This document shows, one piece after another, positions 1 to 48,699 of a stretch of DNA of 64,000 bases. Position 1 is the first letter of the stretch. The number at the start of each line of letters is the position of its first letter. This DNA is from Amoebophrya sp. A120. Its lineage: Eukaryota; Protista; Dinoflagellata. The position numbers and the translations under genes were made by a program. The DNA is taken from positions 7,370,989 through 7,434,988 of the forward strand of contig CAJINV010000005.1 in the NCBI GenBank assembly GCA_905178155.1. Reading direction: 5' to 3'. The notes under the pieces were generated by a model. It did not search any database, was not told where the DNA came from, and saw only the letters and a program-made list of their open reading frames with translations.

Positions 1-106
1 AAATCTGTGATGCTAGGCCATGCTGCATTACAGGCATTATGTTTCATGTAAAATATGCATGACAAATCTTGCAATCTCCCAGACCCAGACATTTTTGCAT
101 TTGATA
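1..106. mobile_element. Introner family A (right end only)
   Basis: Ends CCAGACCCAGACATTTTTGCATTTGATA; truncated by window start. Confidence 0.85.
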
Positions 107-17362: not shown

Positions 17363-19441
17363 CAAAAAATATAATGCGCCGGTTTTATGCTATGCAAAAA
17401 TGTCTGCTGATCGTTTCCGTCAACTACATAATTGTGTATGACAAGAAGAAAGCGAACAAAAGCGCATTTTTTTCTTCGTAAAAAAGAAGGAAGCATCAGC
17501 TTAGCCTACTGCCTCCCGAAGGCTGCAAAAAGCTAAAGCATCGCCATCGGTTTGTTTGCTCGTTCGTTCGCCTCCAACATCGCAGCAACGTCTTATTTCG
17601 ATTCGGTTTCTGCTCTTTTTGCAGAATTTCCACAAATAAAGTAGATTGTGAACTGAGCTGGCCAGCACACGACCGGATTTTTGATCGATGTAGTCGGTTG
17701 TCTGCACCAGCCAAGGATTTATTTTGTCGGTCGTTGTAGAAGTTGTACTCCGCCAAATTATGTATTCTGTGTGGTCCGTCACCGTCTCTCGATGTCGGTA
17801 GATTTTTCATTTCGTACAACAAGCTGCAAAGAGAAAGAGGACGCGCATGGAAGTATGCACTTTTTGTCGTTCATCTCCCGACGTACTACAATGCCGGATT
17901 TTCATCGTTCACTCATTGTCATTTCGGTCGTTCAGCTGCATTCAATTCGGTAGTACTACCGTACAAATTTGCGTACTATAATCGTGCAAGTTGTTATTCG
18001 TCGTGACGAGGAATTCTATATACAGATGTGGTGGCGGAGGTGGCCTGATGACTGAGTAAAAAAGCGTCTGGTGCAGCTTCACGGTGTACTACAATCGAAG
18101 GCAATTGCCTGCATGTGCATGCAGCCATGCACATACTTGCTTCCCTTTGCCTTTGCGCTTTTAGCTCTTGCGCCCGAGATTCAGTACGAGTATTGAAGTA
18201 GACAGGTGGTCGTGCAGCTCATCAGGCACTGCTGGTTGTACTAGTGGAAGCTAGTGGGAAAAACCTACAACTTCTAGTAGTAGTAACTCTAGGTGGACGA
18301 GTGGACCATAATGTATGATGCGCACAACTACCACTTTAACACCCAAGTAGAGTCACAAGCTGGACTTCTGAAATTAGTCGCCCAGTGCACGACGTGCACA
18401 AAAAAGGACGCGCGCTAGTTGTGCCTTTTGAAGAAGCAACGGAAATATAATAGACTTGAAGATGGCAGTAATCAGTCAGGACACCTTCGCCGCTTGCTGT
18501 AGCAAGCCCTGCGGCAGACGATGGCGAAACGATCACAAAATCAGCTGCTGCCACGAAATTCGATGCATTGAATACCAATCGTCGTGCTGATATAGACACT
18601 GTCGGTGAAGAAAAGTGATGCTGATAAAAAACGCTCCATCTCTATCCCCCCACTTTCCCACTCAGGATCCCATTTAACTATGTTGTATCTCGATATTTCT
18701 GAAGATTTTGGTTTTTTCTATTTGATTTCCTGCGCATATACTTTCTACATTTTGTTCAACACGGCGAGACTACTAAGACAACTAGAGTTGTGAAGATGTT
18801 ATGAGTTTATAATTTTCATCCCGGAGTAGATCAAATAATTAGCCTTGGTGTGTCATTTATTTTCGCAGTCGCAGTGCCACCACCATCACGACCATCAACC
18901 CGAACGTAACAACCTGAACTCGCGCTCGCCAGCACCGAAAACGACCAACGGAGCAGCATAAGAATCTCGATCTCTCCAATAATCACAGTACAACGACAGG
19001 ACCTCCGCAGCTTGTACGACACTGCTCGGAGAGCAGTGCACAAGAAATATAAGTGGAATCCCTGACGCGGGGAAGAAATCACGTCCTCGTGCGGATTCAT
19101 CACGGTGGAGTCGCAACTACAAGTTGTGGCCCTCGATGCGTGACAACGAAGTAGAACACCTGCAACTTCCACGTCGCAAATCCACTACGTTGTCCATCCA
19201 ACTTCGAAAAGTTTATGATGCGGGCTCGGAGATGAGGATGAAGTTGAACATGAAGATGAAGAACCAGTGGCAGGAACATCAAGAACATGTGGACCACGGT
19301 CGTGGCCTAATTCGCGGTTCTTGGTAGACGAGAGTGAGAAGTGTACTGGGTTGTTCTGCAAACAAAACCTTTAATTATTCTATCTCCTGATATGTTCACC
19401 ATCTCCTCCTCGTCGACCACAAGTTTAGTACACTACAAAGT

Positions 19442-22400
19442 ATGTCGGCCTCCTTCCCGAAACCGAATCGCAGCAAAGGACACCCGCCTCAGGTGCACAA
19501 CTTTTACCCAGGCACGGTGCTGGGTGGTGGAACAGCGCCACCACCACACGGTGCCGGGTCCACCCCAACATCGGGGAACAACACTATAGCTTCACCGAAA
19601 ACATCAATAATATTGGGCGAAGGTGTAGTAGGTGTTGGTCCTGGTCCTGGTCAGAAGCAGAAGACGGCTGAAAAATTATCGAAGCAGGTCGCGAACATCA
19701 AACAAGGTGAAAACAAGAAGAGGAACCTAGCCGCCAGTAGCACGGCGTCTTTCCCGTCTTCTGCTTTTCCCGAAGTAAATCAAGCTCAAGCTTCTTCATC
19801 CGAAATAAGTAGGTCAGAGTACAACAACATCAACTCGAACGCGATAATATCCGGCAGCAACTACAACAACAGCATCGGCCAGCAGGTGCCACCGAGCCAA
19901 TCATCGTACGGAGCAGGAGCTAGCTCGTCTATTGTCTATGGCCCGCCGTCTAGTCAACATTCTGGCGTCGGAGTAGGAGGTGGTCCAGCGGGGGCTCCAC
20001 CTATAATTCTTGCGGGCTACGATTCCAATATAAGTAGTTACGGGCGGCGGGCGGGGCAGGAACACCACAAGAGCGGCAGCATGAACAAACGAACGGTAAA
20101 CTACAAAGGAGGTACGAGTACTACGACTAGCGCAGGAGCAGGAACAACTACTACAACATCGGGCGGCGGGTTACTGCAAAAGGCCTCAACAGGCGACTTC
20201 GGTTCTTCGTCTTCAGGAATAAACAAAAGCGCGCCTTCTTTACCTTCTTCGTCCGCGGTGGCTGCTAGTACAACTGGAGACACTGGGTCGTCGGAATTTA
20301 TTATGTCAACTGGCGTAGTTGGTCCAGCTCCAGCGAACCTTCACAACTACAACGGCGCAAGCGGCCCCAGTATGATATTAACGACAGCAGCACCACAGCA
20401 AGACCAAAGATATTACAACTACAGTGGCACGACAAACAGCGACAAGACAGCAGCCGCCAGGCAGTCGGCTGCGCAGAGCACGGGAGCCGCGAGTTGGTCT
20501 TATCACGGAGGGGTTCATACAGCTTATGACGAGAATGAGGACGCTGCTGGAGAACAAGATCTAGAGGACAAGCAGCAATCTGGACTTGTGTTCTACAGTA
20601 CTGCGAACGATCAGACTAGTAACACACAACTAGGGCCATCTCTATCAACTACAGACCATCTGCACAACATCTCGTCCGGGTTGGCAAAAAATTCCTCTAG
20701 AATAGACAACAACTTTCAGCTTGTTCACAATTTATCCGCCGAGCAGGAACAAACAGCGCAAGATGAACCACAGCTGTTGATGATTCCCGAGCCCTCTACC
20801 GCTCCCTACTCGCAGTGGGGGGATAATTTCGATCTTCTTCACGACAGGGACACGACGAATAACAGTAGTGGGATCTACTCAACATCTGGACGACCAGAAG
20901 CCTTGATGTTGTCCTCGGCCACGTCGAGCGCGGCTTTTTACCCGGCGGCGAATCATGTGCAGCAGCATGTGCTGGTAAAGAAGCAATTTCAACATCCTGC
21001 AGCAGGAGCTGTGCCCGGAGGTGGAGTGGGAGCTGCTACTGGTACTGCTCCTGCCGGTAATTTCGCGTACCACTACGGACCGCCGTCTTCCCCCATGTCC
21101 ATGAATTACACAGCGCTGCAGCAACAACGGCATCTTCGTGCTGCAGGAACTTCTTTTACCGCTGGCAAAAAGCTGAAGCAGACGAGATTCAACAACTATT
21201 CCGTCGCCAGCGCCCTATCCGCGGCCGGGGAGGGGAGTGTGAGCGAAGAAAGCCTGCTGAATGGGGTCGCTGTGCCTTCCTCTCCCTCCGGCGAGCAGAT
21301 GATGATGTTGAGGGGACAGAATAATTACAACAATCATGCGCCACAGACCGCGACGAGTCCTCAGAGTGGTCCTCGTTCTACGAACAAAAGCCAAAACTCC
21401 ACCATCCCCTCGAGTCTGAGCATATCAAATGCAAAAATGTCTGGGTCTGGAAGAGCAAGAGTCCGAAATTTCCTATGCTGTTTTTGCATGACACAGAATG
21501 TCTGTCATGGAAGCCCTAGCATTACAGATCTTTAGAGGCCTTCCTGATACCTATTCCCCATGACAAATGCCCTCCACGCGTAGCACAAACCGGACTCCTT
21601 TTGCTGGTCATGCAATACAGAACTTTTTAGAGTCCAAAGTTAGCATCACAAGTTCCAACCTTCCAGACCCAGACATTTTTTGCAATGCATAGAGCAGCGG
21701 GCAGAGCAATCTGGCGTCGGGAGCCAGCAGTGGTGCGCCGACCTCCGGGGCAGCTGGTGCACGGGGAGGACAACATCGTCTACACCAGAAACAAGTTTTT
21801 CCCACCAACGGCCCTGATTTGTTCGGACTGAACAACTCGCAGCCGCAGACCGGGGGACACCAGTTTTCCGCCAAGGCGCTGCGGCATTTTTACGACATAT
21901 CAAGTGCAAACATTTCTGGGTCTGGAAGAGTGGAACTTGTAATGCTGTCTGCGGATTCTATGAATATTTGTGTTGCAGCATGAGCAGCAAGAGGAGTCCA
22001 GTTCTTGGCCCGCGGAGCGGGCATTTCTCATGCGCAATTAGCATCAAGAAGCTCTCAAAAAATCTGTAATGCTAGCGCCAGCATCACGGACCTCACGGGT
22101 CATGCAAAATGTGCATGACAAGCCACGACTCTTCCAGACCCAGACATTTTTGCATTTGATACGACACGTGGGGAGACAAAATCCTGTTCAGCCAAAATTC
22201 CGGGTACAACGAGCGGAACCAGTATTTGCTACTGCAGACCATGTATGCATTGCAAAAGTAACGTTCTTACTAGTATAAATTGCAATACAAATTCCATCAG
22301 CATGAGAAATAAAATTTGTCATGCGGATTCACTTTAAGAAAGAAACTTGTAATGTATGACTGCAATTAGATACTACGAATACGATACTTTTGCACAGGAT

Positions 22401-25400
22401 ACCATGTACCCGTCCAACCTTCTGAAATCCCCGCAGTTTTCCCAGAACACGCCCTTCTCCGGGCTGGCGCAGTGGTACATGAACGCGGATATGCCGGCGG
22501 CGTTCGACGGAACTAACGCGAGCTCGATGCGGATTACGGTGGAGCTCCTTCACCACATGCGATTCTCGCAGGAGCTCCTGGTCTCCAAACAGGCGGTGTA
22601 TGAGAAGTTGAACGAACTAGAGCGATTGTCGAAGCTGCGGAACTATGGATTGCAAATATGTCTGGGTCTGGAAGAGTGCAAGTTTGTCATGCTTGTCTGG
22701 CATGACAGAAGAGTTTGTGATGCGTGTCGAAGAAGAGACCCTCTTGTTGCTTGTCATGCAATAAAACGCAACTTGTCACACGGAAAGCGCAACACTAAGC
22801 AGCGCAAATATTTTTCATGCTTGGCTGTGCATTGCAGAGCATTCACTATTCACAACTCAGCATTACAAGTTTCCAGACCCAGACATATTTGCATTTGATA
22901 GCAACTACGGGTACTGGCGCGAACCCATCGCACTGGAGCCGTGGATGCTCCGTGGGGTGGATTTCGATGTCAAAAACGCCGCCTTAATGCCCAAGTACGA
23001 CCGGGACTACACGAACATCAATCGAACGTCCGTCCAGCTTTTCTACATGGTCTCCCAGATCCTCCGCACGGAGTTTCTGAAGGTTGCGGAGCCGAGCTCA
23101 GGGGATATCTTGGAAGCGGCGCGGCACGTCATCGAAAATCCGGACGCGCTGAACCAGCAACAGCTGAAGCTCGCGACGAAAAAGGCGCAACCAATGATCG
23201 GGGCCTTATTGAACAAACAGTGGATGCGACTCGACCCCCTCTGGCAGCTGCAGTGCTACCATTTTTACAGCTCTCTGCCCACGACGGACAAGATCAAGCA
23301 GCTGAAACGGGAGAACAAATGCACTGAAGAAGACCAGTGGAGAAAAGCGCACCGGTGGCGCATGTTGACCTCCTGTGTCTACAAGTGCGTGAACAACGCG
23401 GATTTCCGGTTGAACGACTTGCAGCAGTGCGGCATCATCGAAGCTCTGGCGCGGGAAACGCAGCTGCCCGGGGAAGGGGAGGCGCTGGCGCAAGAGTTCA
23501 ACCGCTATTATAACAGGAATAGTGCAGGGGGTGATGCTGGTGATCATTATGACCACCAGCAGTATGCGACGAAATCTAGGCAGTCTATGTTCCGGAAGAT
23601 GATGCAATTCAGAATCTCGCCGCAACAGGTAGCGGCAGGTGGTACGACGACGACTTATGGAAACAAAGGTGGCGGCGCTGGTGCTGCAACTTCAGACCCG
23701 ACGTCGAAAAAGGTCTACAACATCATCTCCATTGATGATTTTTACAAGGCGGCTTGTTCCGCGTCCCGGCTCACCGACGCGTTTGAAGCGGGCGCCAATC
23801 GGAGTCGCATCCACAAAATGATGGCTTTGTCGGAGAAAGAGCTGAAGACGTCCATGAAGTACTCCATGCAGCAGCAGCAGTACATTCACCAAACTTCTTC
23901 CAACAGCTACAACCCGAAGCACGAGTGCAAGTTCTTGTCAGACGGCGGAGCGTCCACGCCGGACCACGGCAAAGCTCTCTTCGACAGCGTGCAAATCCTC
24001 ACGTACGACGCCGAGTCTAACCGCGTGAATTTAAACCCGATTTTCGGCGACGCGCTGGGTGCGGGTTGCGACAACAACCTCCAGATCAACAACTTCCAGG
24101 TGTTACGGCTCTATAACAGCAGCTCTGCGCTGACAAATGCCGCTGATTCTTCCCTGCACCAAAACGAGAAACTGTTCGTCTCTTTCGTGTATCAAATGTA
24201 AAAATGTCTGGGTCTGGAAACTTGTGATGCAGGGTGGGGTCTCATGATGAGGCCACAATTGCTGGCCCAGCATGACATGTTCCTGAGCTTCTACGTGTTG
24301 CCTATTCTGCATGACAAACTGCGTTTCTGCATCACAGAAAAGTGGGGCTCTTGGGTAACGTGCATGACAGATTTAAGAGTCATGCCAGACAAGCATGACA
24401 AACATGCATTCTTCCAGACCCAGACATTTTTGCATTTGATATCGTGACGGTCCGCGACCAGGCCCCGCCGGAGGGGTGTGGGATGTGGTATTACGTCACT
24501 TACTATCAAATGCAGATATGTCTGAGTCTGGATGAGAATGGAAATGTTTGTCATGCGTTTTGTGAATGACACAGATGGTCTTTAATGCGCGCAACAGCAT
24601 TACAGGTTTTGCGCAGGCCTTTTGATGCCTGTTTCGCATGAGAAATTTCCTGCTTGCGTAGCAAAAGACGGGCAGCTTTTGGCGTTCAAGCAACACAAAT
24701 TCATGGGTTGTCCAGACCATGCATCACAAGTTGGAACTCGTCTTCCAGACACAGACATGTTTGCGGTTGATACTTACGTCTGGGTGATGCAGCACCGGCT
24801 AATCCAGAAATTCATGAAGTGGGTGGGGCAATCGCCGATCCGCTGCTGTCCGCTGAGCTCGCGACAGCGGACGGTGAATAACGTATTTGTCTATGGGCTG
24901 AGCGGGCTCTTGACGTTAGGAGAGATCACCGGCATTCTGTTCGGGCTGTACTTCATGTTTCAAGAGTGCATGCCCGAGGCAGAGGCCTTGGAGGCGTGGC
25001 TGATCGTGATTTACATCGTGTCCGGTTTGGCGGTGTTGACCGGCATCATGGTGGTTTCCTTCTGTCTAGTCAGCCGAAGAGGCGGGATGCACTCCAGTGA
25101 CCCGGTGACCCAAATGATCGACGTGCTGTATTCTGGTAGTCAGTTCGGCTTCAAAATGGTCGCGAACTCGGATGCGATCGCCGCCGCAATTCGCTTAACG
25201 CACAAGTACCACGGGATGCAAAACATGATGGATTCTCATCTCTCGATCGAGAACTCGGAGTTGCTCGGAATCGATCCCCGCAGGCCGAACCCGTATTGGG
25301 TGGAAGCGATCTTCAACCCAATCACCGGCTTTTTCGAGTGCGAATTCGAGTATGACGGGAAAATCTCCACGTTCGCCTTCTGGCCGACGCTAACGGGATA

Positions 25401-28400
25401 CAGTCTGCGAAACATGGTTTCCACCGACGTGTTTCTGGCCAGGGAAGACATGCTGGCAACACCTGTACACCATCACGCACCTCACCAGCCGGCGAAGCAG
25501 AGCTCCCAGCTGGGAGCTGCACCTTCACATCAGGCAGTGGGGACGATGCCGCATGCGCAACCGCAACAAGAAGGCCTTTCAACACAAAAACCCACGAGGC
25601 CGCACGACACCGAGAAACAGCAAATCGACCAGGGTCAGCGAGAGATGCCCACCAAGGATCACGACGGATATATTGTAGAGAACGACAATTCCATGGAGGC
25701 CATGATGGGGTATTTCTTAGACAACCAGTATGGATTGCAAATATGTCTGGGTCTGGAAAGTTGGAACTTGTATTGCTGCTCTTACATTCCTGTGAAATCT
25801 GTACTGCGTGACCATAACAAAAGTCGCAGCCTCTACTCTTGTCATACGCGAACGCAGCCTCTCATGCGGACTGCGTATGAGAACAAAACGTTCTGCAAAC
25901 TTGTCATGCTTTCCTGCATAAGGAAGGGCTCTCTACTTGATGCACATTTTAGCATCAGAAATTTCCAGTAGACCCTGAAATATTTGCATTTGATAACCAC
26001 GAGGACGAAGCGATTCACACGGGGAAACAGAAGGTTGAAACCCTTATGGTCGACGACCCAGATCTCGCGATGAAACACTTGAAAGCGGGCGGAGATGAGG
26101 ACTTCGCCTCACTAAACAACTTCGGTGCAGCTGGTGGTCTTGCTATCAATCCAACAGAGATCAGTAGGTTCAACATGCGGCGCATGGCGAGTTCGATGCG
26201 GTTCACGACGCAGCCAACGCGGGCCATGACAACTAGGAGCTCGCTGGACAGAAATAGTAACGGGTCTTCGGTTGATGTACCAGCATCTACCGCAGATAAT
26301 ATGTTTCTCCCTGCAGTCCCAGAAGGGGAATACGAAAGACCGCTGACCATGCGAGGAGATTCGACAAGACGAGAAAGCGCTGGGGGCTTACTGCAGTCTT
26401 CGCGCCGAGGAGGAGGAGGGTCTATTTCTACTAGGAACTACCCTGCAAGAAGTAGGAGTGGCGCTACTTCTAGGTTTTCATCTTCCTCAGGAGCCCTGCA
26501 AGAAGACGCTCTTTACGACCACGGGAAACGCCCGAATCAGTCCTGGTTCCAGCACTTCTACTCCGCTCTGCAGGCCCGGAGCACCGCCATCCAACTAGAG
26601 CAAGAGGCGGCGACTCCCGCGACCATTACGGATTACAGCTCCAACAGCAGCGAATACTCCGCTTCGGGGGTCTTGGAAAGAGCGGGGTATGGGCGGTTGT
26701 CGTCGTCTACAGCGACAGGTACTTCTGCTTCCAGCGCCGCATCGGCCTCCGCCTCAGAGGCAGACTTTAACAGTAGGTCTTATCAGAACTACCAGCAGAA
26801 CTTCTACCCTTACTCCTCTCCTCTCAACGACGGGACCACGACCAGTTTCCGGCCGAGTTGGCACGACCATTATGAAACCGTAGAAGAATACGATGCGGAT
26901 CAGGGCTGGTATAGTGATGCGTATGCAGCTGCCACTGGCACTGACTACGCTTACCCTTATGACGCCGCCGCGGGGGGGTACGACGAAACCTATCATTACC
27001 AAGGCAGCGACAGAAGAAGTCCTTCCAGTATGAACAGAAGAAACAAGGGTTTTTTCGCGGCTCTGTTCGAGAAAACCTGGGCGACAGTGGAGGAGTACAC
27101 AAATTTGACGGGAAGTAGAGGAACAGGAAGAACAAGGACAGGGGCGGCCTATCAACGCGATGAATATACTAATCAGGACCTCCACCGCCAAATAGCAGAC
27201 CAAAAATCTTCTTTTGTTGATCCAGGTCAACATCATCAACACCAGCGGTACTATAACACTTACGAGGACTACGGATCCTATGCAGATGTCGAAGAGGATG
27301 AAAGCGAGGAGCACAGCCCGTATCAAATGCAAAAATGTCTTGGTCTGGAAGATTGCGAGATTTGTCATGCTTGTCTGGCATGACCAAAAAGTTTGTGATG
27401 CATGTCTAAGAAGAGACCCTTTTGCCTGTCACGCAAAAACGCAGTTTGTCACGCGAAAAACGCAACACAAAGAAGCGCAGATATTTCTCATGCTTGGCTG
27501 TGCATTACAGAGCATTCACTATTCCCAACGCAGCACTACAAGTTTCCAGACCCAGTCATTTTTGCATTTGATAGCCCCTTTATTTTCGCCACGGGCCAGA
27601 ACGTCCGCTATCTCGCAGCAGCCGGCGGTGGTGGAGCTGCCGCTGTCGAAAAACTTGCTGCAGGAGAAAAGAAGAGAGCTGCTCGCGCCGCCCCTGCATC
27701 GCCGGTGGTCCCTCCGCCCGAGGAGGGTTCCGCCGGTGGTGCGTTGTCGATCGTGGCAGGTGGGGGCGGAAGTAAAAATGCCGTTGGAGCTGCTTCGGGT
27801 CAGGAGGGAGAAGACGCCCATAACGTGACGCCGCCTGCACCACCGGGACAAATACCTGCGAATGCAGCTCCGAAGAAAAAGCTGAAAGCTTCCGGCATCC
27901 GAAAGGGGACGAAAACGGAGGTGAGCCCTTACAGATTAGCGGAAAGTAATCAGCAGATATCAAATGCAAAAATGTCTGGGTCTGGAGGGTTGGAACTTGT
28001 GATGCTAACTTTGGACTCTAAAAGCATCTGCATTGCATGACCGGCAAGAGGAGTCTAGTTTGTGCTACGCAGGGAGGGCTGCATTTGTCATGCGGAGTAG
28101 GCATCAAAGCCCTCTAAAAATTTGTGATGCTAGGCCGTGCATTACACACATCCGGGGTCATACAAAATATGCATGACAAACCCGGCAACATTCGAGACCC
28201 AGACATTTTTGCACTTGATAGCAAAGTTCTTCTATCAATCCAAACCCGAACACGGCGCAGGGCGCGAAAGCAGCAAGCTATGCAACTGTCAGGATTGAAA
28301 TCGTCAAAGTTGAAATAGTTTATCATGCATAAAATGCGACGCAGAAACTACCTGTCTTGCAGAGTAGGCAAGGAAGGCAGATTGTAAGCCTGTTGCGGGG

Positions 28401-31400
28401 TAGAAATAGAGCTGGTAAAGTAGCATGACAAAAGGCGTCTTCCTGACCTAAACAGCATGACAAACTGGGCTTCGGCTCTACTAAAATTTGTCATCCGCCG
28501 CTTGGAAATTAGGCTTCCAACTGGTATCGGTTTTAGGCATTACAAGTTATTTCGACTTTGTCGATTTCAACTCTGACACATCCATACAAGCACGGTCAAG
28601 GCTAGTACTAAAACTGTGGCACGGGGGCGGGCGAAGAAGAAGGGCGGGGTGAAGGGCGCTACTCCGTCAATGTTGAGCAACAACAGTAGAAACGTCGAAC
28701 AGTCGAACTATAGTAACTTATCCGACCACTCCGATGTTGCGAGTCAACCGTCTACTGGGGGCAACGACCGAAACGCCCGGTCCCTGTCACAAAAGAGCAG
28801 CTCTTCTAGTCAGGAAGAGGAGGGACAGGCTAAGAAGAAAAATGCTTCTCATAGTAGTAGAGCTGCGCCGGGGGCGGTTGAGAATAAAACTTCGCAGGCT
28901 TCCACTTCTTCCCAGCAACAGCAGTCTGCTTCTCGCGGTCACTCAACTGCGAAGGAGGTGATGAATAACATTCAGGAACGGCGGGAGAATTTGGAAGCCC
29001 GGTCCCAGTTCAACCCGTTGAAAGCCAAAGCAAGTCAGAAGTACACCGCAAAAGCGGTGACCGCGATCATTTTCGTCTCCGGGTTCGCAGACCACAACGG
29101 CGCGGTGCAAGAGGGATTGGACATGTTCTGGCACCTGTTCCGGTTGAAACAGTCGTTGGAGTACTTGTATCCGGACCACAAGCATTTGATCTACGTGAGG
29201 ATATCAACTGTAAAAGTGTCTGGGTCTGGAAGGATGTCACTTGTGATGCGCATTTCAGAACACAGAAAAATCTCTCATGCATAGGTAGCAAAAGCTGCCT
29301 AGTTTCTGTCACCAAACTGGGGCGACATTTGTCATGCGGATTTGGCATTGCGGAAGCTTCTCGAAACCTGTGATGCTAGAGCTTCCATGCCAGACCTTCT
29401 CTGTCATGCAAAAATAGCATGACTCTTCCAGACCCAGACATTTTTGCATTTGATAGAGGAGGTTTGAGAACCACTTCGACATTGTGGATTTCTTCGATTT
29501 ATGCATTGCAAAAGCTTATCATACTAGTTCAAATTCCATTACAAATTTGCTCAGCATGACAAAGGAATTTGCAGTGCTGTTTTGGCTTTACAAGGGAGAT
29601 TTGTCATGCCTAGCTGCAATTTGTAGTACGACTACGAGTCTGAAGATACTTTTGCAATGCATACGATTTCCAGAGAACGGGGATGAAGGTCTTGAAGAAC
29701 CTCGTGTGGTTCGAGCTGCGGATGCACGGGCACCCAGACATATGAAATGGCACAGCTTTCGTCCCTCCCCCTCAACATTTGTCATGCAAAATACCCAAAA
29801 ATCCACCCTTTGCCTCTTGGCACTGTTTGCATCACAAGTTCTGGTAGCTGCCCAAATAGCACTACACTCCAGCGCATCAAATTTGTCATGCAAAACCGGC
29901 TTTACTTTGTTTTGTTTCCTTAATTACTTAATACATACATACAAATGATGATGATGATGCTTAAGTTATGGCTGATTCTTATTGTTTTATTTTTCATTAA
30001 GAGGCCTTCCTCGCCACCCGGACGTCCTGCCGGTAGACCACCAATGTCATGCAAAACCGGCATTCTTGCTGATGCTTGTATTGCTGTCCATGCAGTATAC
30101 AAATGAGGGGGAGAGATAGTTGTGCACTCTCATAAGATATGATGAAAACGAGTCGGGTGTTGGAATTAGAGGATATGATTATCCCCTTCGAAATGAGCCG
30201 CAACGCGGTGAGAGCCCCTTTGGGTATCCTCTGCAAAAGTATCGTACTCGTATTGCAATCGTGCATTACAAATTTTTTTATCTAGGTAAATCAGCATTAC
30301 AAATTTACTTTCTCATGCCTGGGAAATTTGTCATGCATCTATACAAGTACGATGCTTTTGCATTGCATATTGGGCGGCTTACCGCAGTGCTGCCAACGGT
30401 GTTGCGCCCCCCGGAAGCCGAAACCCGCGATATCCAAGGCCAAGCCGCAGGGCGGGGCCGGAGCCGCGCCCATGTTCCACCACGGGCCGAAAATGGCGAA
30501 TTTTTTGCGGAAGATGGACGCCATGGACTTGTACGAAAGCAAGAAAGACGACGCTACGGGGACAAAACTCCAAATAGAGGAAAAAAGACATAACAAGGGT
30601 GTAGTAGGCGATAGAAAGAGCTCGAGAACAGACCGTTGGTCGGTGTCCGACCATATAAGGCACTCGTTGACTGGCTTAACCCCGGAAGAGGCGGCGCGGA
30701 GGGAAAAGGAGAACTTTGTAAATCGGAAAATTGATAAAAATTGGCAGCCCGAGGTGAAAACCTACACGTGGTGCTGTTGTCTGAAAGGGAGAAACAGACG
30801 CTACCACCCCTTCGCCGAAGCCTTGGCGGAACAGCAAATCGCAATTCCGACCATGCAAAAGCAACACAGCTACCGGATAGAAGAGTCGGTGGTTTACAGG
30901 TTGCATTCGTCCATCCTCAACGGCAGAACATCCGATTTCGCGCCGGACAGAGACACGAGGTCAACGATGAACCCGAATTACAATTCCGCGCCAAGTGTAA
31001 TGCAGCAACAGCAACACGAGGGCAAACAGGCTTTCGACAACCGGCATGCGGACGTGATTGACCCGACGAGTGAGGCGTTTGAATCGGACGAATTCTGGTT
31101 CGTCCGAGTTGTTATGAAATGCAAAAGCCTCGTTCTAGTAGTAATCGCATTACAAATTTGCTCAGCATGACCAATGGCATTTCTGATGCTGCTTTACCTT
31201 GAAAAAAGAGATTTGTCATGCATAAATGCGATTACTACGAGTGCGATACTTTTGCACAGGATAGGTGTGATTCTCCTGTCCAAATGTAGCAGCCCCGACT
31301 ACCCGCTGACCATCTACAACATGAGTTGCGAGGTGGGAAAAGACCCCCAGAACGGGATCGCGATGAACATGATGAAATTGTTCCAGTCGCTAAATAAAGT

Positions 31401-32428
31401 GAAGAAAGTTCCCATCCAAATGTTCGCCGCCCGGGAGTCTATCGCACCGAGAATGCCAACAGATTTACCCGTTCCCGTTTTAGAATTCGAAACGGGATTA
31501 GATGACGGGAGCGAAGAACTACGGGCGAGCCAAATCGCCGCGGCGAATTATATGAACGCTAGGGCAACTGCTGGGGGAGGGGGTCCTCAAGGTGGTCAAC
31601 GGCCTGCTCCGACTGCAGTGCACAAAAACCCCTACAAATTCGTGGTGAAAAATGCGTTCGCGAGGAATCCGAAGCAGATCAAGAAAAACATCAAGACTTT
31701 GAGTGGAATGAATGTTGCTAACGGGCAGGCAAGCAATGGTGCTAGTAATCCTTCCTCGCGCAGCATCTACGAGCGGTTTACGAATTACGAGTCCATCGAT
31801 GCAGACGTGAAGGATTTTGACTACTTGTTGACTCGGTACTTGTATCAACTGCAAATATGTCTGGGTCTGGGAGAACGGAACTTGTGATGCTGCATCTGGA
31901 TTGCAAAAAATCTGTATTGCAGGAGCAGCAGAGTGAATGTATTTTTTGCTGCGCGGACAGGGCATTTGTCATGCGGAATAGGTATCAAGAAGCCTTCAAA
32001 AAATCTGTGATGCTAGGGCATGCATCACAGACATCGTGGCTCATGCAAAACGTGCGTGACAAGTCTCGGAATTTTCTAGACCCAGACGTATTTGCGATGG
32101 ATAACTTGATCAACGATCAGAATGAGATGGACTACCATTACTGCCGGCATTATCAACTGCAAAAATGTCTGGGTCTGGAAGACTCATGCTGTTTTTGCAT
32201 GACACAGAAGGTCTGGCATGGAAGCTCTAGCATCACAGGTTTCGAGAAGCCTCCGCCATGCCGAATCCGCATGACAAATCCCCCATTTTGTTGACAGAAA
32301 GCGGGCAGCTTTTGCTACCTATGCATGACAGATTTTTCTGTGTTCTGAGATGCGCATCACAAGTTCTGACTCTTCCAGACCCAGACACTTTTGCAATCCA
32401 TAGGCATGTGGAAGTCGTCCCGACGTAG
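19442..32428 (+). CDS. Very large hypothetical membrane protein, ~2906 aa, 17 introner introns
   Basis: Single frame after removing 17 elements plus one TSD each (8721 nt). Two TM-like segments at about 24880-25075. Long low-complexity regions. Stop TAG at 32426-32428. Start codon not certain. Confidence 0.75.
21423..21691. mobile_element. Introner family A
   Basis: TSD GAGCA. Confidence 0.92.
21898..22161. mobile_element. Introner family A
   Basis: TSD CGACA. Confidence 0.92.
22244..22401. mobile_element. Introner family B
   Basis: TSD CCATG. Confidence 0.92.
22644..22900. mobile_element. Introner family A
   Basis: TSD GGAAC/GCAAC. Confidence 0.9.
24190..24441. mobile_element. Introner family A
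   Basis: TSD TCGTG. Confidence 0.92.
24504..24772. mobile_element. Introner family A
   Basis: TSD CTTAC. Confidence 0.9.
25729..25995. mobile_element. Introner family A (opposite orientation to 216-468)
   Basis: TSD ACCAG/ACCAC. Confidence 0.9.
27321..27573. mobile_element. Introner family A
   Basis: TSD GCCCG/GCCCC; close relative of 22644-22900. Confidence 0.9.
27958..28220. mobile_element. Introner family A
   Basis: TSD GCAGA/GCAAA. Confidence 0.9.
28279..28586. mobile_element. Introner family C
   Basis: TSD CAAGC. Confidence 0.92.
29202..29455. mobile_element. Introner family A
   Basis: TSD GAGGA. Confidence 0.92.
29500..29663. mobile_element. Introner family B
   Basis: TSD CGATT. 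Confidence 0.92.
29741..30134. mobile_element. Introner family E carrying a nested insertion
   Basis: TSD AGACA/AGATA. Confidence 0.88.
29901..30044 (-). mobile_element. Probable 5'-truncated retro-insertion nested in an introner
   Basis: Flanked by 17-bp direct repeat TGTCATGCAAAACCGGC; A-rich 3' end on the minus strand. Confidence 0.6.
30225..30369. mobile_element. Introner family B
   Basis: TSD TTGGG. Confidence 0.92.
31113..31263. mobile_element. Introner family B
   Basis: TSD GTTGT/GGTGT. Confidence 0.9.
31843..32103. mobile_element. Introner family A
   Basis: TSD ACTTG. Confidence 0.92.
32151..32402. mobile_element. Introner family A (opposite orientation to 29202-29455)
   Basis: TSD GGCAT. 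Confidence 0.92.
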
Positions 32429-39019: not shown

Positions 39020-40087
39020 GACGAGCGGATGTTTACCGTTTTTCTTGCCCGGCGTGAAACCAGATGAAACTTTCCGGTAGCAAGCTAAAAACGACAACCA
39101 CAAGTACAACTGAGGCGCTTCAACGAGCAGCATGCACGCACTTGTACTATGATCAATCAAGAAGATCACTTTTATTCGCATGTATATGTACACCCACCAC
39201 GTTCTACTTCTTTGTCTTTCAGCTATTCATTGTTCTGTTCCCTAGCTAGTCTTTCACCGCATTCCAGATCAATGTATGATTTGTACAATTCATAATACCC
39301 GCAATATTTTTATAGACTCGAATAGAAGAAGGAAAACAAAAATACGCGTCACGACCGTCTGGTGCAGCCGTGTCGTGAATGGAAAATTAAAAAGCGTTCA
39401 ATTGGATGAAGCCGCACCATGATTTTGATTTCTCAAGCATAAAACTTCTACTCCATCCGTAATATGCGGCGATTCGTAAACGAAAACGCACTTTTGAAAC
39501 GAGAATACCAAGAAACTGAAACTGCAGGCTCGCCCTGCAACTTCGAGCGCAGCTGCAAATGCTAGGAAAAAACTCTCAGATCCTGGCTTTCTTCATTCTC
39601 TACTACCGGTGGTTCAGTTTTTTTCGTTCCCGTTTTTATCAGACCGTGATTCTGTATGTGCTGAAACTGGCTCGGAACTGTTGAACACAAGTTTTGCAGC
39701 TTTTCCCCTTCGTTTTCTATCTCTATTTTCTCTTCCTGTGAAGGAACTTGGAATTACTTTGGAGATGACCTATTGATGATCCGCGTCATCTGAATCGTCT
39801 TTCTATGCTCGTTTGAATTGGTCGTGGTAGCTCTGTGTACTTGAACCTGTTAGTTATGGTTTCTTGTCGTCTTGATGCTAGCGTAGTAGATACAGCCAAA
39901 GCCGATTGCGTCGTCACGGACGAAGATGTTTCAGAAGTTCCTGAACAATTGGATGGCACCAGAGATGAAACAGTCATGTGTGGTCTGAAACGACTCATAT
40001 CTTTTGCTCTCTCTCCTGCAGCGAGAAGTTTGTAGCCCTAGTCACAGTAGATTCATCATCGCCAGCTAAACCTAAAGTAAGAAAAAA

Positions 40088-43000
40088 ATGCAGGACCCCG
40101 CTGCACAGCACCCCCAGCAGCAGTCCACCAGCACCTCTCTCAAGGAGCTCTGTCGGGACTTTTTCGTCGAAGAGCTCCTCAGGAAAACCATTTCCCTCTC
40201 CGGAGGAGGTGATGGCCGTTCTCAACATATGCACTGCAAATATGTCTTTTGGGTCCTTAAGGATGTACGGTTTGTCATGCTTGTGTGGCATGAGTGAAGA
40301 GTTTGTGATGCGTGTCCAAGAAGAGACTTTCTTTCTATATGCAAAGACTCAGTCTATCATGCGGAGAGCGCAACTACACGAGACCGCGCAAATATTTCTC
40401 ACCGTGCTTGGCTATGCATTACAGATCATTTCACTATTCACAATTCAGCATTGCAAGTTTCCAGACACAGACATATTTGCAATGCATAAAGCAGGGTAAT
40501 TCGCCACAGGGACGAGAGCAGTTCGAGGGCGGAGTAGATTCTATCAAAAGGAAATATCCCCCCTCCCCATATCGGAACGACGTTTCTGATGCTGGATTTG
40601 CGTACACAAATCAGGTCTGTCTTGCTGGAGAGGACTGCAGGCATATGCCAAGCCTGAGTCGAGAGGTTTGGACGTAGGCGACTAGCATGACAGATGTCGG
40701 CTCTGTAAGCCCAACAGCATCACAAGCCGCCTGCATAATGCTGCCGACTCTCTGGCTTTGTCTTCTTGCAAGACAAACGCGATTTGTGACCTCAAATCAC
40801 CAACACAAATGTTCGGAGTCATACCTTTTCAATATGGGGAGGGGGGATTTTGCCTCACAATAGATTCGCCGCAGTCACCAACGGTAGATGTTGCCAAAAA
40901 TCTAAATGCGGCGGACACTCAAAACAAATTCCTGGTGATCTGCGACCAGTGCGGTTTGCGCGTTTTGAACAGCATCTGCAGGTTGTCCGACCTCTACGAA
41001 ACCGGGGTAACCGCGGTAGAAGCGCTGGAGTCGAAGGATAGGCAACCTATTCCGTCGTTGGATGGGGTGTATTTTATCGACCCGGAGGATGCCGATAGCG
41101 TCGGGATTTTGCTGAAGCAGGTACTATGTAGTGCGGGTAAGTTTTGACGACCGGCGCTGTCTTGAAGATAGTGATCCTGGTCATCTACGATTCATCTTTG
41201 TGAGACAGTGTAACAATCAAAGCCAAACAAGAAAAATCTCCCAAATACATAGCTGGTCGACTACTAATTGTCCCTGCTTCTTCTCAGGAGGGAGGTGGAC
41301 TCTGCGTCTGCTACAGTAACAGTGGGATTCTATGCCAATATGATGTAGCTGCCATAATTTGCAAACTTCAGGACTTTCCCATCCCGACCGCCGCTGCGCC
41401 CGACCCAGTCGCCAATCTCGCCGGTAACACGAATCCAATGTCGCTCTCCGCCGCAACAGCAGCATTGAAATCGAAACTGCCGAAGACAAGTTCGCAACAG
41501 AAGGAGCAGATCCAGCATGACAACGTGCATCTTTTCTTCACCCGGAAATGCCCCGATGAAGTCCTCCGAGAACTTTCCCGGCACCCGCTGCTCGCCCCGA
41601 GGATAAGAAACGTCGTGGAGATCCCTTTGGGTCAGTTCCAACTCTTCCACAAAAACGTGTTTCACTTGGATTTATCCGGCGGGCTGCGAAATCCGAAACT
41701 GTTTTCCGCGAATTTTCTGCAAAACAGCAACACAAATGCAGCAAATAATCGGGACTCGTTTGGGAATCTGAAAAACTGGAGCAAGGACACTCGGGGGAGG
41801 ATTCTGTCAGACAAAGGCTCGAGCTCTGCCAGCTCGCCGGTCGGAGAGAACTACGATGGAGTAGACAACAACGGCACACAGCCTCATGAGGATGAAAATG
41901 TCCGGAACGGTACTATCAAATGCAAATATGTCTGGGTCTGGAACAGTGGAACTCGTGATGCGTGTCTTGCATTCCTGGAAAATCTGGGTTGCATGAGCAG
42001 CAAAAGAGGAACTTCCTTCGTGGTCATGCAGAAATGCAATTTGTGATGCGTGCTAGGCATCAGCAGGCGCGTCAAAAACTTGGCATGCTCGGCTGCCATT
42101 GCAAGCAATTCAATCATGCTCAATTCAGCATCATAGGTTTCCAGACCCAGACATATCTGCAATGCATAGGTACCGCTTTGACGCAGCGATCACTTTCTCT
42201 CCTGCCCAACGTCAACCACTTCTACCCGAGGTTTGCCAGGCTGCACGACACGGTCGCAGGCCTGTATCAGCTGTGCAAAGTGCTGAGCTACAACGGTGGT
42301 ACGACTGGGGGTGCCGCCGGTGGTATAATACCAGGGCAACAAAATCGCGCAGGTTCCTGCTCCTTCGACCTGGATATCCGGTTCCAAAAGGATTCCATCG
42401 GTATACGCATTGCAAATATTTCTGGGTCTGGAAGAATGCAAACTTGTGATGCGCATTTCACAACACATAAAAATCTCTCATGCATAGGCAGCAAAAGCTG
42501 CCCACTTTCTGTCACCAAAGCCGGGCATTTGTGATGCAGATTCGGCATTGCGGAAGCTTCTCGAAACCTGTGATGCTAGAGCTTCCATGCCAGACCTTTT
42601 GTGCAATGCAAAAGCAGCACGACTCTTCCAGACCCAGACACTTTTGCCTTTGATAGGGTAACATGTGCTACAACTTGGCACGAAAGCTGATTCAGGAACA
42701 CAACTATCCTGTGCAAAAGCATCGCACTCGTACTAATCACAGTCATGCAAGACAAGTTTCTTTTTCAAGCTAAATCAGCATGACAAATTCCATTCCTCAT
42801 GCTGAGCTCATTTGTATTGCAATACTACGAGTGCGATAATTTTGCAGTTCATAACAACCGAAATTTCTCCAGCGGGGGAGCAGGTTCTAGTAGTAGAGGC
42901 CGGGCGTCGTCTGACCCGAGGGGCCAGGCGTCTTCGATGGGTGGTGGTATGAACAGGCGGGGTAGAGAGACAGGTGGCGGCGCCGGAGCAGGTTTGGTAT

Positions 43001-46000
43001 CTTCTGCTGGAAAGAAAGTGGAGATTCTAATTTTAGAACGTGCCTTTATGGGTGTGTCAGGATTGTAATCGATAAAGTTGGAATAATCTGTGATGCATAA
43101 AATGCAAGGCACGAAGTGACTGTCTTGCAGGGATTGCAAGTGAGGCCGATTGTGAGCCTGTTTCGGGTTTTGGATAGAGCTGCTAAAGTAGCATGACAAA
43201 GGATGCCTTCTTTATTCGCTAAACAGCATGACAAATTGGATTATGATGGCATCAACATTTGTCATGCGTCGCTTGAAAATTGGGATAGCAACTGGTATCG
43301 GTCTTATGCATCACAAATTTGTCAACCTTGTCAGTTTCAATCCTGACAGTTCCATAGTTTTTGATCTCCCGGCCTGCTTCGTCCACGAGTACACGTATGA
43401 AGTATGAAGTGCAAATGTGTGTACGTCTGGGTCAGGAATCTTGTGATGCTGAAACTCGCATTGCAGAGTAGCCGCATGTACGGCATAAGAGCGTAAGAGG
43501 TTGTTTTGCGAGGCCTAGGGGTAGTGCCGGATCATTCGCAAAACGCATGACAAACTGACACTGGGTTTCACAGCATGACAAGAGAACTAGCCAATCGCAT
43601 TTATGCATCACAAATCCTTGTTGCCCTTGACATCTTGCATCACAAATTCAGACACAGACGTATTTGCGATGCATACGAAGCCCTGGTCTACGATGTTTTG
43701 GACGACGCCATGGAGCAGTCGGCGAACAACCTGAGCTACATATCGCAAGAAAAAATCTCTCTCTGTAAACTTGTGATGCAGAAAGTGCATCACTAGGCTG
43801 TTTGTCTTGGTACACATGCGAGACACTTGATGTGCAGCTGTGTTTTGTATTTGTTCCCGTAGGAACCACTAAAATGGGCCGTCTTTTTTCTTGTCATGTG
43901 CTGTAGCGAAGAACTTGTCTTGCAAAACCTGCAAAGTCCTATAGGGTGAAGCACTTTTTTCGTGCGATACCACGCGAAGTATGGGCTGAATATTGAAACA
44001 GGAGTGATAAACACCACCACAGCCGCATCCTCCGCTACTTCAGGGACATCAAATCATGCAAGTACGGAACAGCACGTTTTAGCGGACGATTTATGGGAAC
44101 AGTTAAAAGCGCAGCACTTCGTGGACGCGCAGAGCTACGTTTTGACCCAAGCCGGGAAGCTATCGGAGCAGTTTGGTGGGCTCGCACAGTTGGAAAAGCA
44201 AGGTAGAGTTAGTTGGTTTCATGTCTAACGTACAACTCTGCACAATGACTAGTAACAGCAGGTTGCGATCTTGGTGATAATTGCAGCTGGTCCTCCTGCG
44301 GTGGCGCCTTCGTTGCATATGCATTTATTCGCAAGATATAAAAAGTACGGCACTGTGTACTAAGTAATGGTTGATCAACATCAAAAAGTTATCAGGTGGG
44401 CAACAGCTTTCCACGGAGGCCCTTGCGCAGATGGTAAGAGAGCGACCACAGTACCAGGAATTGCTGCGCAAATACCACTTTCACGTGGACCTATTCGAAA
44501 AAGCCGCTTACCAGCTGAACGAGGATAAACTGATGGGCACCTCCAGCAACCAGCAAATGAATAACAACGCCTCGGTATCCTGACAAAAAACGTCCCCACA
44601 CCAGAGTCAAGATGGCCAATCTGCTAGACAAATCAACCAGCTGCGGTTGCTGCGCATGACAAGTTTGGCCTCATAGTGTAATCCTATTGAGCTAGCTCCA
44701 GCAGCATGACAGATCTAGCCTACCATGCTGGTGCGAGCGTCGCAAATTGCGAAACACGACTAGGAAACGCCTCTCATGGGGCTCGACATGAGAAATATTT
44801 TTTGCCATGCAGATTGCCATACCATTTTTACCCAGAATACTCGGCGATCCCGATCGAGCTCTGCGTGTTCGAACAAGATTTAGCGACGGGGGTGGACCTA
44901 TCAAGTGCAAAAATGTCTGGGTCTGGAAGATTGCAAGGTTTGTCATGCACGTTTTGCATGACCCAAGATGTCTGTGATGTATGCCACAGCATCACAGATT
45001 TTTTGCGGGCATCTTGATGCCTATCCCGCATGAGAAATGCCCTCTCCGCGGAGCTAAAACTGCACGCCTCTTGCTGCTCATGCAATACAGATTTTTTTAG
45101 ATTCCAAAAATTGCATAAGAGCGGGGTAACAAATGACCCGTTAACTCGCACCCGCGAGTTAGCCGGCCGCCCGGCCGGCCGGACGGTTAACTCGCGGTTA
45201 GCAGTGTAGACATATCGAAAGGTGGCGCGAATCTAACCCGAAGCTTTCGCCAATCCTCAATCCAGCGCGCTGATTGAGAATTTTTTTATCGTGCTTATTT
45301 ATAAACGAAATCGATTGCAAAACACGGCGGAAAAACCGTAACAGGCTTCATTTTTTGCAATTCGAAACGAGGAAAGTTTTTCATGCGTCAGCAGCGTAAA
45401 GCGTCGCTATCATTGCAGTTCATCTAGCGAACGCTGAGAGAGGGCGAGCTAAACTCCGCCTGCGATCTGGCGCTTGTTTAAATCGCCATGTTATAGCGGT
45501 GACGCAATAAAATTCTCAATCAGCATGCTCGAATGAGGATTGGCGAGCACTTCGGGTTAGATTTGTGCCACCTTTCGACTTGTCTACACTTCTAACCGCG
45601 AGTTAACCGTCCGGCCGGCCGGGCGGACGGCTAACTCGCGGGTGCGAGTTAACGGGTCATTTGTTACCCCGCTCTAACAAGTTGCATTCTTCCAGACCCA
45701 GACAATTTTGCAATCCATAGGACCGCGAGGGCCGGGAGATGAAAGTGCTGCGGTTTAACAGTTTGTTACAACAGATTCTGAACAACTCCGCTTCGAGCAG
45801 CTACAGCTCGGACCCGAACTTTATCCCGATGGAAACGAAAGTCCGGCTTTTGTTGTTGTATTTCTCAGTATGAAAGTGCACAACTCCCCCTCCCCCTCAC
45901 TTGTATTGCATGAACAGCAATACAAGCGTCAGCAAGAACACAGGTTTTGCATGACAAATTTATTTGGACAGGCGTGTAGTGCAGCTATTTGGGCTGCCAG

Positions 46001-47606: not shown

Positions 47607-48699
47607 TAGTTGGGTTTTTTCGTGTCATGATCCCAGGAACCAGATCCAGATGATTGAACATATATAAGCGACAGGAGTGCTGGTCCACGTGGACAGCATT
47701 GCAACTGCAGGGACGAGAGTCGACGCCTTACAGAAACGAATGAACACGACAGAAATGAATGAACACGACAGGTTGCGCTACGTTGTACAACTATGAGAAT
47801 CTTCTTCACGAGCATGTGCTGCAATTATGCAATGGTCACCAGTGACCTTGACCGACGCGGCAGAAATACACCACGTCGTCAACCAATTTTGTACACTTTC
47901 GTAGCACCGCGAAGTTATCAGCAATTAGTCACTACGAAGGACACCGCGAGGACTCCTGAAAAAAAACGGCGTCTATTCCTTCTCTATCGTATCACTCGTT
48001 GAGGTAGCTGAGGGAACTGCGGAGAGAGAGAACTACTAGAGGAAAATGAGAGACAGACAAGACATACAGCTCGTAGTTTCTTGATTCGAATCTAACCTTC
48101 GTTCGAAATCGTCGTAATAACACTCGTAAATACCACCAGCAGTAGCACGTGGATTCGAATTTTCGTGCACTTTTTCCACAGACAAAAATCATTCGTGCAG
48201 ATGAAAATTTGTCGCTTCGTGCTGTTCGTCTCATTCGTGCGATAAGAGCGATCGTCTTCAATCGCAACTTCTTATGCAGCACATGTATTGATACCATCGC
48301 GTCTTTTCGTGGAGGTGTTGCTCGCACATTTGTTTGAGGAGGAAAGGATCGATCCCTATTGTTTGCTTTTTTGAAATTGAAAACCAGGGCCCTAATACAG
48401 GAATTTCAGTTTATTTCGACGTCAAATACCTCCTGCGCGTGGTGTTCTTACTTTTGTTCTTTCCAGAGTTCTTGATCTGCCCTGGCGGTAGCATCTTGAC
48501 TCTGAGCCATAGGACCTTTCTAGTTTGAACTTTCTACTTTCTCGTCTTTCAGAAGGAGAAGTCTAGTGCAGTGCATAAAAGTTAAACTACAACTTGATTC
48601 GTGGTAAACACGGCTTGACTGCTTATTTTCGCAAGTAAATGTTGTAAAACTTGAACAGCCTCGTCCCGACCCCTAGTACTCGTTGAACAATAAACCAAG

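Follow-up and report, generated by a model that had tools for sequence, protein, structure and literature searches.

Removal of Amoebophrya A120 introners in either orientation and a candidate fixed register for their splicing

Introners of the dinoflagellate Amoebophrya sp. A120 have been described as elements with TAT ends, seven variable nucleotides and AAA, flanked by direct repeats of 3-5 nt and fitted to a hairpin model (PMC7789003); how the tens of thousands of Amoebophrya non-canonical introns are removed is called open in that paper and in PMC11282704. Here we analyzed such elements in a 64,000-nt stretch of A120 (GenBank assembly GCA_905178155.1, contig CAJINV010000005.1, positions 7,370,989 to 7,434,988 of the forward strand; hereafter the window). 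The window resembles the published account in its TAT + 7 + AAA ends, 3-5 nt repeats, mean non-canonical intron length (240 nt) and co-oriented genes (PMC7789003). Copies of the same element were found to be precisely removed in either orientation from contigs that are probably RNA, and the removed segments appear to share one register. According to PMC7789003, the point of splicing varies with respect to the hairpin and is unknown, and the passages of that paper that were searched are silent on element orientation. Dataset file 8 of PMC12130899, across 22 of its 58 A120 rows, gives mixed target site duplication (TSD) lengths and mechanisms, in contrast to the 5-bp TSD seen here.

Introners that create introns in either orientation are reported for Polarella classes 1, 2, 3, 6, 7, 8 and 10 and, as cited in the same source, for Aureococcus (10.1101/2020.10.14.339549). 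Like the window elements, the introners of Polarella glacialis and Aureococcus are transposons with terminal inverted repeats (TIRs) and TSDs, and Polarella class 12 shares a 5-nt TSD with NNAG|G geometry; however, these introners depend on G(T/C/A) and AG supplied by the TSD or the element end, classes 6, 8 and 10 are orientation-biased, and class 12 occurs in one orientation only (10.1101/2020.10.14.339549). The elements described here are unbiased and, unlike those of Polarella, have a nearly free TSD, with AG|G in 15 of 269 elements of the window and related loci. Opposite-orientation pairs are also admitted by the method of PMC9860276, and further comparators are given in PMC8469720 and PMC12621601.

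More distant parallels exist. Nonconventional introns of euglenids share a MITE-like origin (MITE, miniature inverted-repeat transposable element), inverted ends, TSD-like repeats, the lack of GT-AG and of a pyrimidine tract, and fixed spacers from a paired motif; in euglenids, however, the motif is CAG/CTG with 3-nt and 5-6-nt spacers, a purine follows the junction and circles are excised (PMC12501133; PMC11282704). The A120 elements instead have TAT/ATA and, at the candidate junction, 1-nt and 4-nt spacers and U+2, and their terminal profile shows neither CAG/CTG at +4..6 and -8..-6 nor a purine after the junction. Non-canonical introns of Fritillaria borealis are likewise MITE-derived with TIR and TSD and are removed by an adapted spliceosome, but their ends are restricted to AG-AC and AG-AT after an exonic TAC (PMC11282704). 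TA…TA termini with TIRs also recall the IS3EU/GingerRoot DDE transposons; integrase-type transposases make TSDs of 4-6 bp, and the IS3EU/GingerRoot TSD is usually 6 bp (PMC10045372) compared to 5 bp here.

A120 introners, their hairpin model (PMC7789003) and either-orientation introners (10.1101/2020.10.14.339549) are therefore already known, and removal in either orientation is not in itself new. Neither orientation independence nor a fixed register was found stated for Amoebophrya in the literature searched, which suggests that unbiased, nearly signal-free, fixed-register removal is new within that literature.

Introners in both orientations and their removal from likely transcripts

Elements of the window end in TAT…ATA and are flanked by a 5-bp TSD. 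When the window was scanned for TA(T/C)…(A/G)TA ends flanked by a 5-nt repeat, 84 candidates were returned, compared to 1, 0, 0, 0 and 0 in five Markov shuffles. The catalogue of 75 used here was hand-picked, with nested or weak candidates left out and 13225 and 53173 taken in (elements are named by their first position); it occupies 28.5% of the window, and some degenerate elements lie outside it. TAT starts 73 of the 75, and A is found at positions 11-13 in 59-68 of 75, the A run being absent from minority families such as that of 28279. When a metagenome was scanned with the family A end, at least 171 loci were recovered; the loci listed hold 337 unique elements, 277 of them with a perfect TSD (up to two mismatches were allowed), and window copies are mostly perfect as well. 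These are repeated families that lie in exons, have non-canonical ends and are absent from likely-RNA contigs. Judged on sequence, they match the published A120 introners.

The elements are also miniature inverted-repeat DNA transposons, with TIRs, TSDs, small size, no coding capacity, high copy number and insertion polymorphism. The polymorphism is a family A site at positions 86-330 of locus L101, which is filled and carries the expected 5-nt duplication in a 95% identical relative; its empty counterpart, TGGTT near 10927, lies in a gene whose MIF4G and MA3 domains make it likely to encode the spliceosomal factor CWC22. The filled and empty sites show insertion by transposition. Rfam gave no matches, and no autonomous element or transposase was found in the window and related loci. 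Four long TIR elements are present there; the longest, at 505-1608 of locus L024, is a 1104-nt TAT…ATA element with a GC-rich repetitive interior that by eye looks like a nested, non-coding insertion and not a transposase gene.

A preliminary description of this DNA had proposed that one element works as an intron in either orientation, naming copies that are inverted relative to each other (Table 1). Alignment bears out these relations. Copies 29202 and 42404 align with the reverse complements of 32151 and 50276 at a mean column identity of 90%, with 194 of 269 columns invariant in the four-copy alignment of this focal subfamily, and 216 and 9617 align with the reverse complement of 25729 at 79%, in an alignment that also took in copies 13225 and 41914. 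A palindromic interior as the source of this result was rejected, as alignment of a copy to its own reverse complement scores about 0, compared to 270-298 for copies in the opposite orientation; the interiors are directional.

Removal was read from assembled contigs. Across two long genes, 30 of 30 elements were removed as element + 5, that is, with exactly one TSD copy, a count that concerns contig-covered genes only; twelve further elements at 13044-17176, at low depth, have no joint among the joints listed. The 30 comprise 14 listed joints, two cases of directly adjacent pieces and 14 of piece arithmetic, and both orientations are represented in family A (8 + 5), family B (6 + 5) and family E (1 + 1). 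Two contigs of run X3 span 18712 to the end of the first long gene and supply the 14 listed joints, each skipping element + 5. Among these, the joint 32145>32403 skips 257 nt (252 + 5) and removes 32151, while the oppositely oriented 29202, with no listed joint of its own, is removed by exact piece arithmetic in the same run, as are 28279 and 29500. Runs X4 and X5 come from a single sample and contain a 7.3-kb contig that lacks 13 further elements, 50276 among them by piece arithmetic, together with the canonical intron 51224-51646. The second gene (48694-59898) was scored from the piece table, the joint table being dominated by repeat-derived joints of run X1, and run X6 has no long piece on 50150-58600. 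Both orientations are removed precisely and within one contig, which supports the preliminary claim that either orientation works as an intron.

A DNA-like run keeps the elements, and X1 contigs read through element ends and into 50276. The X3-X5 contigs, in contrast, have 0 differences in the listed exon pieces, skip a GT-AG intron and leave 17648-18311 uncovered, as transcripts would, and contigs lacking elements are probably RNA. Runs X3-X5 may share their source culture with the window, and contigs show neither strand nor efficiency; the raw RNA runs X9-X11, with 4, 0 and 1 reads, are too few to give either.

The reading frames of the host genes are consistent with removal. It is loss of the element plus one TSD that restores frame, and not loss of the element alone: the frame opens only at element + 2, + 5 or + 8, of which + 5 is set by the TSD and the contigs. 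Element + 5 modulo 3 equals 0, 1 and 2 in 23, 25 and 27 cases, and this spread over all three classes argues that the elements are not tolerated as coding sequence. Retention of 29202, 25729, 50276, 42404 or 9617 truncates the frame. The preliminary description had placed all named copies in plus-strand genes whose frame they restore, and this stands for most of them; 32151 says little about frame, as this last element leaves the frame open (2964 amino acids) when retained, and around 216 the strand is weakly supported, by a single 123-amino-acid open reading frame (ORF). Copies 216, 9617 and 42404 lie outside the contig comparison and are judged by frame and host gene. The plus-strand host of 9617 has Pfam MIF4G and MA3 domains upstream and that of 42404 has Sec1 segments in order. 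All window elements were treated as lying in plus-strand genes; an automatic call gave plus for 53 of 62, minus for 0 and no call for 9.

Orientation relative to the gene was then counted beyond the window. Gene strand could be assigned by ORF and codon model for 196 of the 337 elements in the loci listed, and 141 were dropped; 73 window elements were added, 51399 being left out as intronic and 44899 as nested. Ten families took in 254 of these 269 sense-placed elements, with orientation ratios of 71:50, 24:22, 9:8, 6:9, 9:5, 4:9, 6:6, 4:2, 1:4 and 3:2. No family shows an orientation bias (smallest p 0.069).

Position of the cut

Where the cut falls within the duplication can be expressed as k, a count of the TSD bases that the left copy contributes. 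The junction is invisible where the two copies are identical, and mismatches between them limit it. Three introns (27958, 29741 and 53173) require k of at least 4 and three (25729, 27321 and 58112) at most 4; 50806 requires at least 3, 22644 and 31113 at least 2, and 57645 at least 1. The value k=4 is the sole one compatible with all 21 joints checked, ten of which are informative through imperfect TSDs, and if k were freely chosen the chance of ten introns agreeing on any single value would be 0.034. As all ten imperfect TSDs fit k=4, we infer one junction, exon NNNN | N-TATS…SATA-NNNN | N exon, in which only U+2 would be constant. The nine commonest non-canonical types of A120 all begin NT, and all nine A25 types begin TT (Table S4, PMC7789003).

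Base composition around this junction was compared with codon-phase-matched expectation. G|G occurs 43 times at the k=4 junction against 21.9 expected (p 3e-5 among 256 tests), while its mirror CC occurs 20 times against 15.3; AG|G occurs 15 times and its mirror CCT three times. The (A)G|G enrichment is present in the sense direction only and in both data sets. At k=4, 131 of 269 junctions fall in phase 0 (p 4e-7), and all four bases occur directly after it. A constant U+2, a proto-splice AG|G and a phase-0 bias are traits of spliceosomal introns. Polarising the TSD mismatches by A/T bias was uninformative (20 vs 22 at positions 1-4; 6 vs 1 at position 5). Just before the TSD, GA is enriched (43 vs 26.3).

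Symmetric ends and candidate mechanisms

The two element ends are interchangeable in base profile at TIR positions 5-16 (position 4, p 0.038). No strand-specific branch signal was seen, CTRAY lying near the 3' end in 24 elements in sense and 28 in antisense of 269, and no pyrimidine tract, the pyrimidine fraction being 0.53 vs 0.54, such that the branch and tract of a U2-type intron are not apparent. Nor was any strand-asymmetric k-mer convincing; the best, GGAGAG, occurs 17 times vs once (p 1e-4 among 1720). These counts fit the idea of the preliminary description that recognition relies on symmetric features. That idea holds for the end signal at positions 5-16 but finds no support for the stem, and the internal motif that it invoked is one-directional in the focal family, as detailed below.

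We somewhat favor a relaxed spliceosome (U2/U5/U6) that takes its 5' splice site from the terminal repeat. The last TSD base and the terminal TAT(G/C) would form a 5' splice site N-U-A-U-S, which would copy the GTAT start of the genome's canonical introns with +1 left free; canonical introns of the window start GTATAG, GTATAG and GTAAGT, with a fourth, GTATAC, seen by eye at about 5299. Since either end could supply the 5' site, direction would be irrelevant. The 3' cut would be set 4 nt beyond the distal ATA by measurement from the terminal repeat and would be independent of AG, a pyrimidine tract and a consensus branch point; either pairing of TIR positions 9-25 or a protein bound to the repeat may keep that repeat close to the 5' end. 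U2, U4, U5 and U6 and most spliceosomal proteins are reported as present in A120, and U1 as not found (PMC7789003). A stricter form of this model, a direction-blind code in which a U1-less spliceosome needs only U+2 and the terminal repeat, measures its cuts from that repeat (1 nt before TAT and 4 nt after ATA) and disregards G+1, AG, the pyrimidine tract and the branch consensus, is put forward tentatively, at somewhat less than an even chance.

Several observations weigh against the spliceosomal reading. Lariats, branch points and small nuclear RNA pairing were not seen, and the RNA status of runs X3-X5 is a guess ("RNA?"). The register comes from ten introns with one contig each, and k could differ between introns; the NT pattern of Table S4 may partly stem from mapper placement of ambiguous junctions. 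G+1 and AG would have to count for almost nothing: G+1 shows no enrichment, with GT at the start of 90 of 270 elements, no more than background (p 0.18), AG at TSD positions 3-4 taken alone is weak when phase matched (33 vs 22.4, p 0.026), and the GT…AG ends of U2-type introns are found at k=4 in only 13 of 269 elements. The CTRAY counts given above offer no branch signal either. Also unexplained is that AA is just as strongly depleted two bases beyond the TSD (6 vs 22.9).

The best-surviving alternative, which we regard as unlikely though well short of negligible, is a euglenid-like, structure-guided and non-spliceosomal nuclease and ligase, in which the TIR stem draws the two ends together and cutting takes place 1 nt ahead of the repeat and 4 nt past it. 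Constant spacing combined with free end dinucleotides does resemble the N3CDG…CH'GN5-6|R signature of Euglena (PMC12501133), and U1 is not found in A120 (PMC7789003); the lack of a branch or pyrimidine signal fits as well. Either orientation can fold into a long terminal stem (z -6.1 and -5.2). However, the outer 7 nt are unpaired in the fold of 32151, and pairing at TIR positions 4-8 reaches 62% of cells vs 87% at 9-25, so that the segment next to the cut is frayed. Among 25 family A window copies, covariation between the ends is absent at positions 4-8 (p 0.48) and slightly in excess at 9-16 (p 0.03). Mismatches of the G·U type in the TIR do not outnumber those of the A·C type (231 vs 242 in 270 sense-oriented elements), and folding does not differ between sense and antisense (p 0.25 and 0.61). 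The earlier proposal of the stem as a recognition feature therefore gains no support from G·U counts or from covariation at positions 4-8. A role for the terminal stem is possible, and a long redundant stem could hide selection. Four spliceosomal traits also speak against such an enzyme: U+2, a start resembling GTAT, (A)G|G enrichment confined to the sense direction, and the phase-0 excess.

A more doubtful alternative is that signals are ordinary and strand-specific, each strand having its own branch point, for example ATGAC/ATTAC in the motif GCATNACAA, with end symmetry serving only the 5' site. Exact matches to GCATNACAA fall inside elements in 168 of 176 cases and are common to otherwise unrelated families. 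The motif has a TRAC-like core, many copies carry it at 30-44 nt from the 3' end, and at least one forward motif is present in 116 of 121 family A elements; a degenerate branch A could also act invisibly to such sequence counts. In contrast, 29202 and 58112 are removed with no forward GCATNACAA, even when one mismatch is allowed, family B motifs near the ends point the opposite way, and CTRAY is balanced between strands. The motif had previously been described as a two-orientation motif. This did not hold: 29202 has 0 forward and 4 reverse matches and 32151 has 5 forward and 0 reverse, and in family E it is also mostly one-directional. Since it runs one way in the focal family and both orientations are removed, GCATNACAA was rejected as a symmetric splice signal and is unlikely to be a splicing signal. 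Neighboring motifs lie 31-33 nt apart, about three helical turns, in 209 of 681 gaps, a spacing that points to a double-stranded DNA site; the array is most likely a binding site for the mobilising machinery. Spacings of 39 and 18-20 nt also occur (all families, window and loci).

The idea that the skipped forms are DNA without elements, as empty alleles of another strain or after DNA-level excision, is scarcely credible: loss of an element plus one TSD does look like an empty site, the L101 pair provides such an empty and filled site, and the run type is the guess mentioned above, but the same contigs skip the canonical intron 51224-51646, match the listed exon pieces with 0 differences, start at 18712 with 17648-18311 uncovered and carry junctions mixing left and right TSD copies, while X1 reads through element ends.

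Other features of the window and implications

Coordinates of the principal features are collected in Table 1. Six exon pieces of the 2923-amino-acid host frame gave no Pfam match, and neither did one longer piece of the Sec1/Munc18-family gene. In the latter, an unrelated element with 170-nt, 92% inverted arms (45118-45675) is nested inside introner 44899-45719 (821 nt), and removal of the whole introner with its nested element restores the Sec1 frame. The CWC22-like gene (4293-11567) is itself split by several introners.

Two canonical introns contain introners. The element 51399-51635 lies 11 nt before the AG of its host intron at a CTAAAC resembling a branch site, and its TSD is decayed (TAAAC/TTAAA), making it a possible intron-in-intron. 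The decayed family B element in the other intron starts at 8747, and here an introner has apparently turned into, or been absorbed by, an ordinary intron. Elsewhere, an intergenic 397-nt perfect inverted repeat with a 98-nt T-rich loop (35240-36131) is either a recently formed foldback element or an artefact of assembly, and 62474-63383 is a T-rich tandem array with a 73-nt unit.

Table 1. Introners, canonical introns and host genes of the window; P and M denote the two element orientations, and k is the number of TSD bases from the left copy
Feature	Coordinates	Strand	Orientation	TSD or ends	Remarks
Family A introner, focal subfamily	29202..29455		M	GAGGA at 29197-29201 and 29456-29460	candidate intron 29201-29459
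Focal subfamily	32151..32402		P	GGCAT	candidate intron 32150-32406
Focal subfamily, in Sec1 gene	42404..42655		M	CGGTA/GGGTA	imperfect TSD
Focal subfamily	50276..50531		P	CGAGG	GT…AG at the candidate junction by chance
Family A introner	216..468		P		host strand weakly supported
Family A introner, in CWC22-like (MIF4G+MA3) gene	9617..9869		P
Family A introner	25729..25995		M	ACCAG/ACCAC	k<=4
Family A introner	27321..27573			GCCCG/GCCCC	k<=4
Family A introner	27958..28220			GCAGA/GCAAA	k>=4
394-nt introner	29741..30134			AGACA/AGATA	k>=4
Family B introner	53173..53358			ACGGA/GCGCA	k>=4
Family E introner	58112..58390		opposite to 50806	CCTCG/CTTCA	2<=k<=4
Family E introner	50806..51086			GTAGG/GTCGG	k>=3
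Canonical intron	51224..51646	+		GTATAG…CACAG	skipped by contigs; contains introner 51399-51635
Canonical intron	8734..8893	+		GTATAG…ATCAG	CCTAAC and decayed family B element within; frame join, outside contig comparison
Host reading frame	19391..32425	+	mixed		2923 amino acids; 17 introners; 714 amino acids unspliced
Host reading frame	48694..59898	+			2164 amino acids; introners and one canonical intron
Sec1/Munc18-family gene split by introners	40076..47603	+			Pfam Sec1 on 4/6 pieces, in profile order

A single register would make the question of how these introns are spliced testable, as it would predict the base at the lariat or circle junction and the nucleotides to mutate, and would allow correction of the splice sites now annotated. 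If a spliceosome drops G+1 and the 3' AG but keeps U+2, this would show which contacts of the catalytic center are dispensable. Should the direction-blind code be true, an exonic insertion in any direction and into nearly any target would be a perfect intron on landing; splicing of every such insertion would explain how introners fill 28.5% of the window at little cost.

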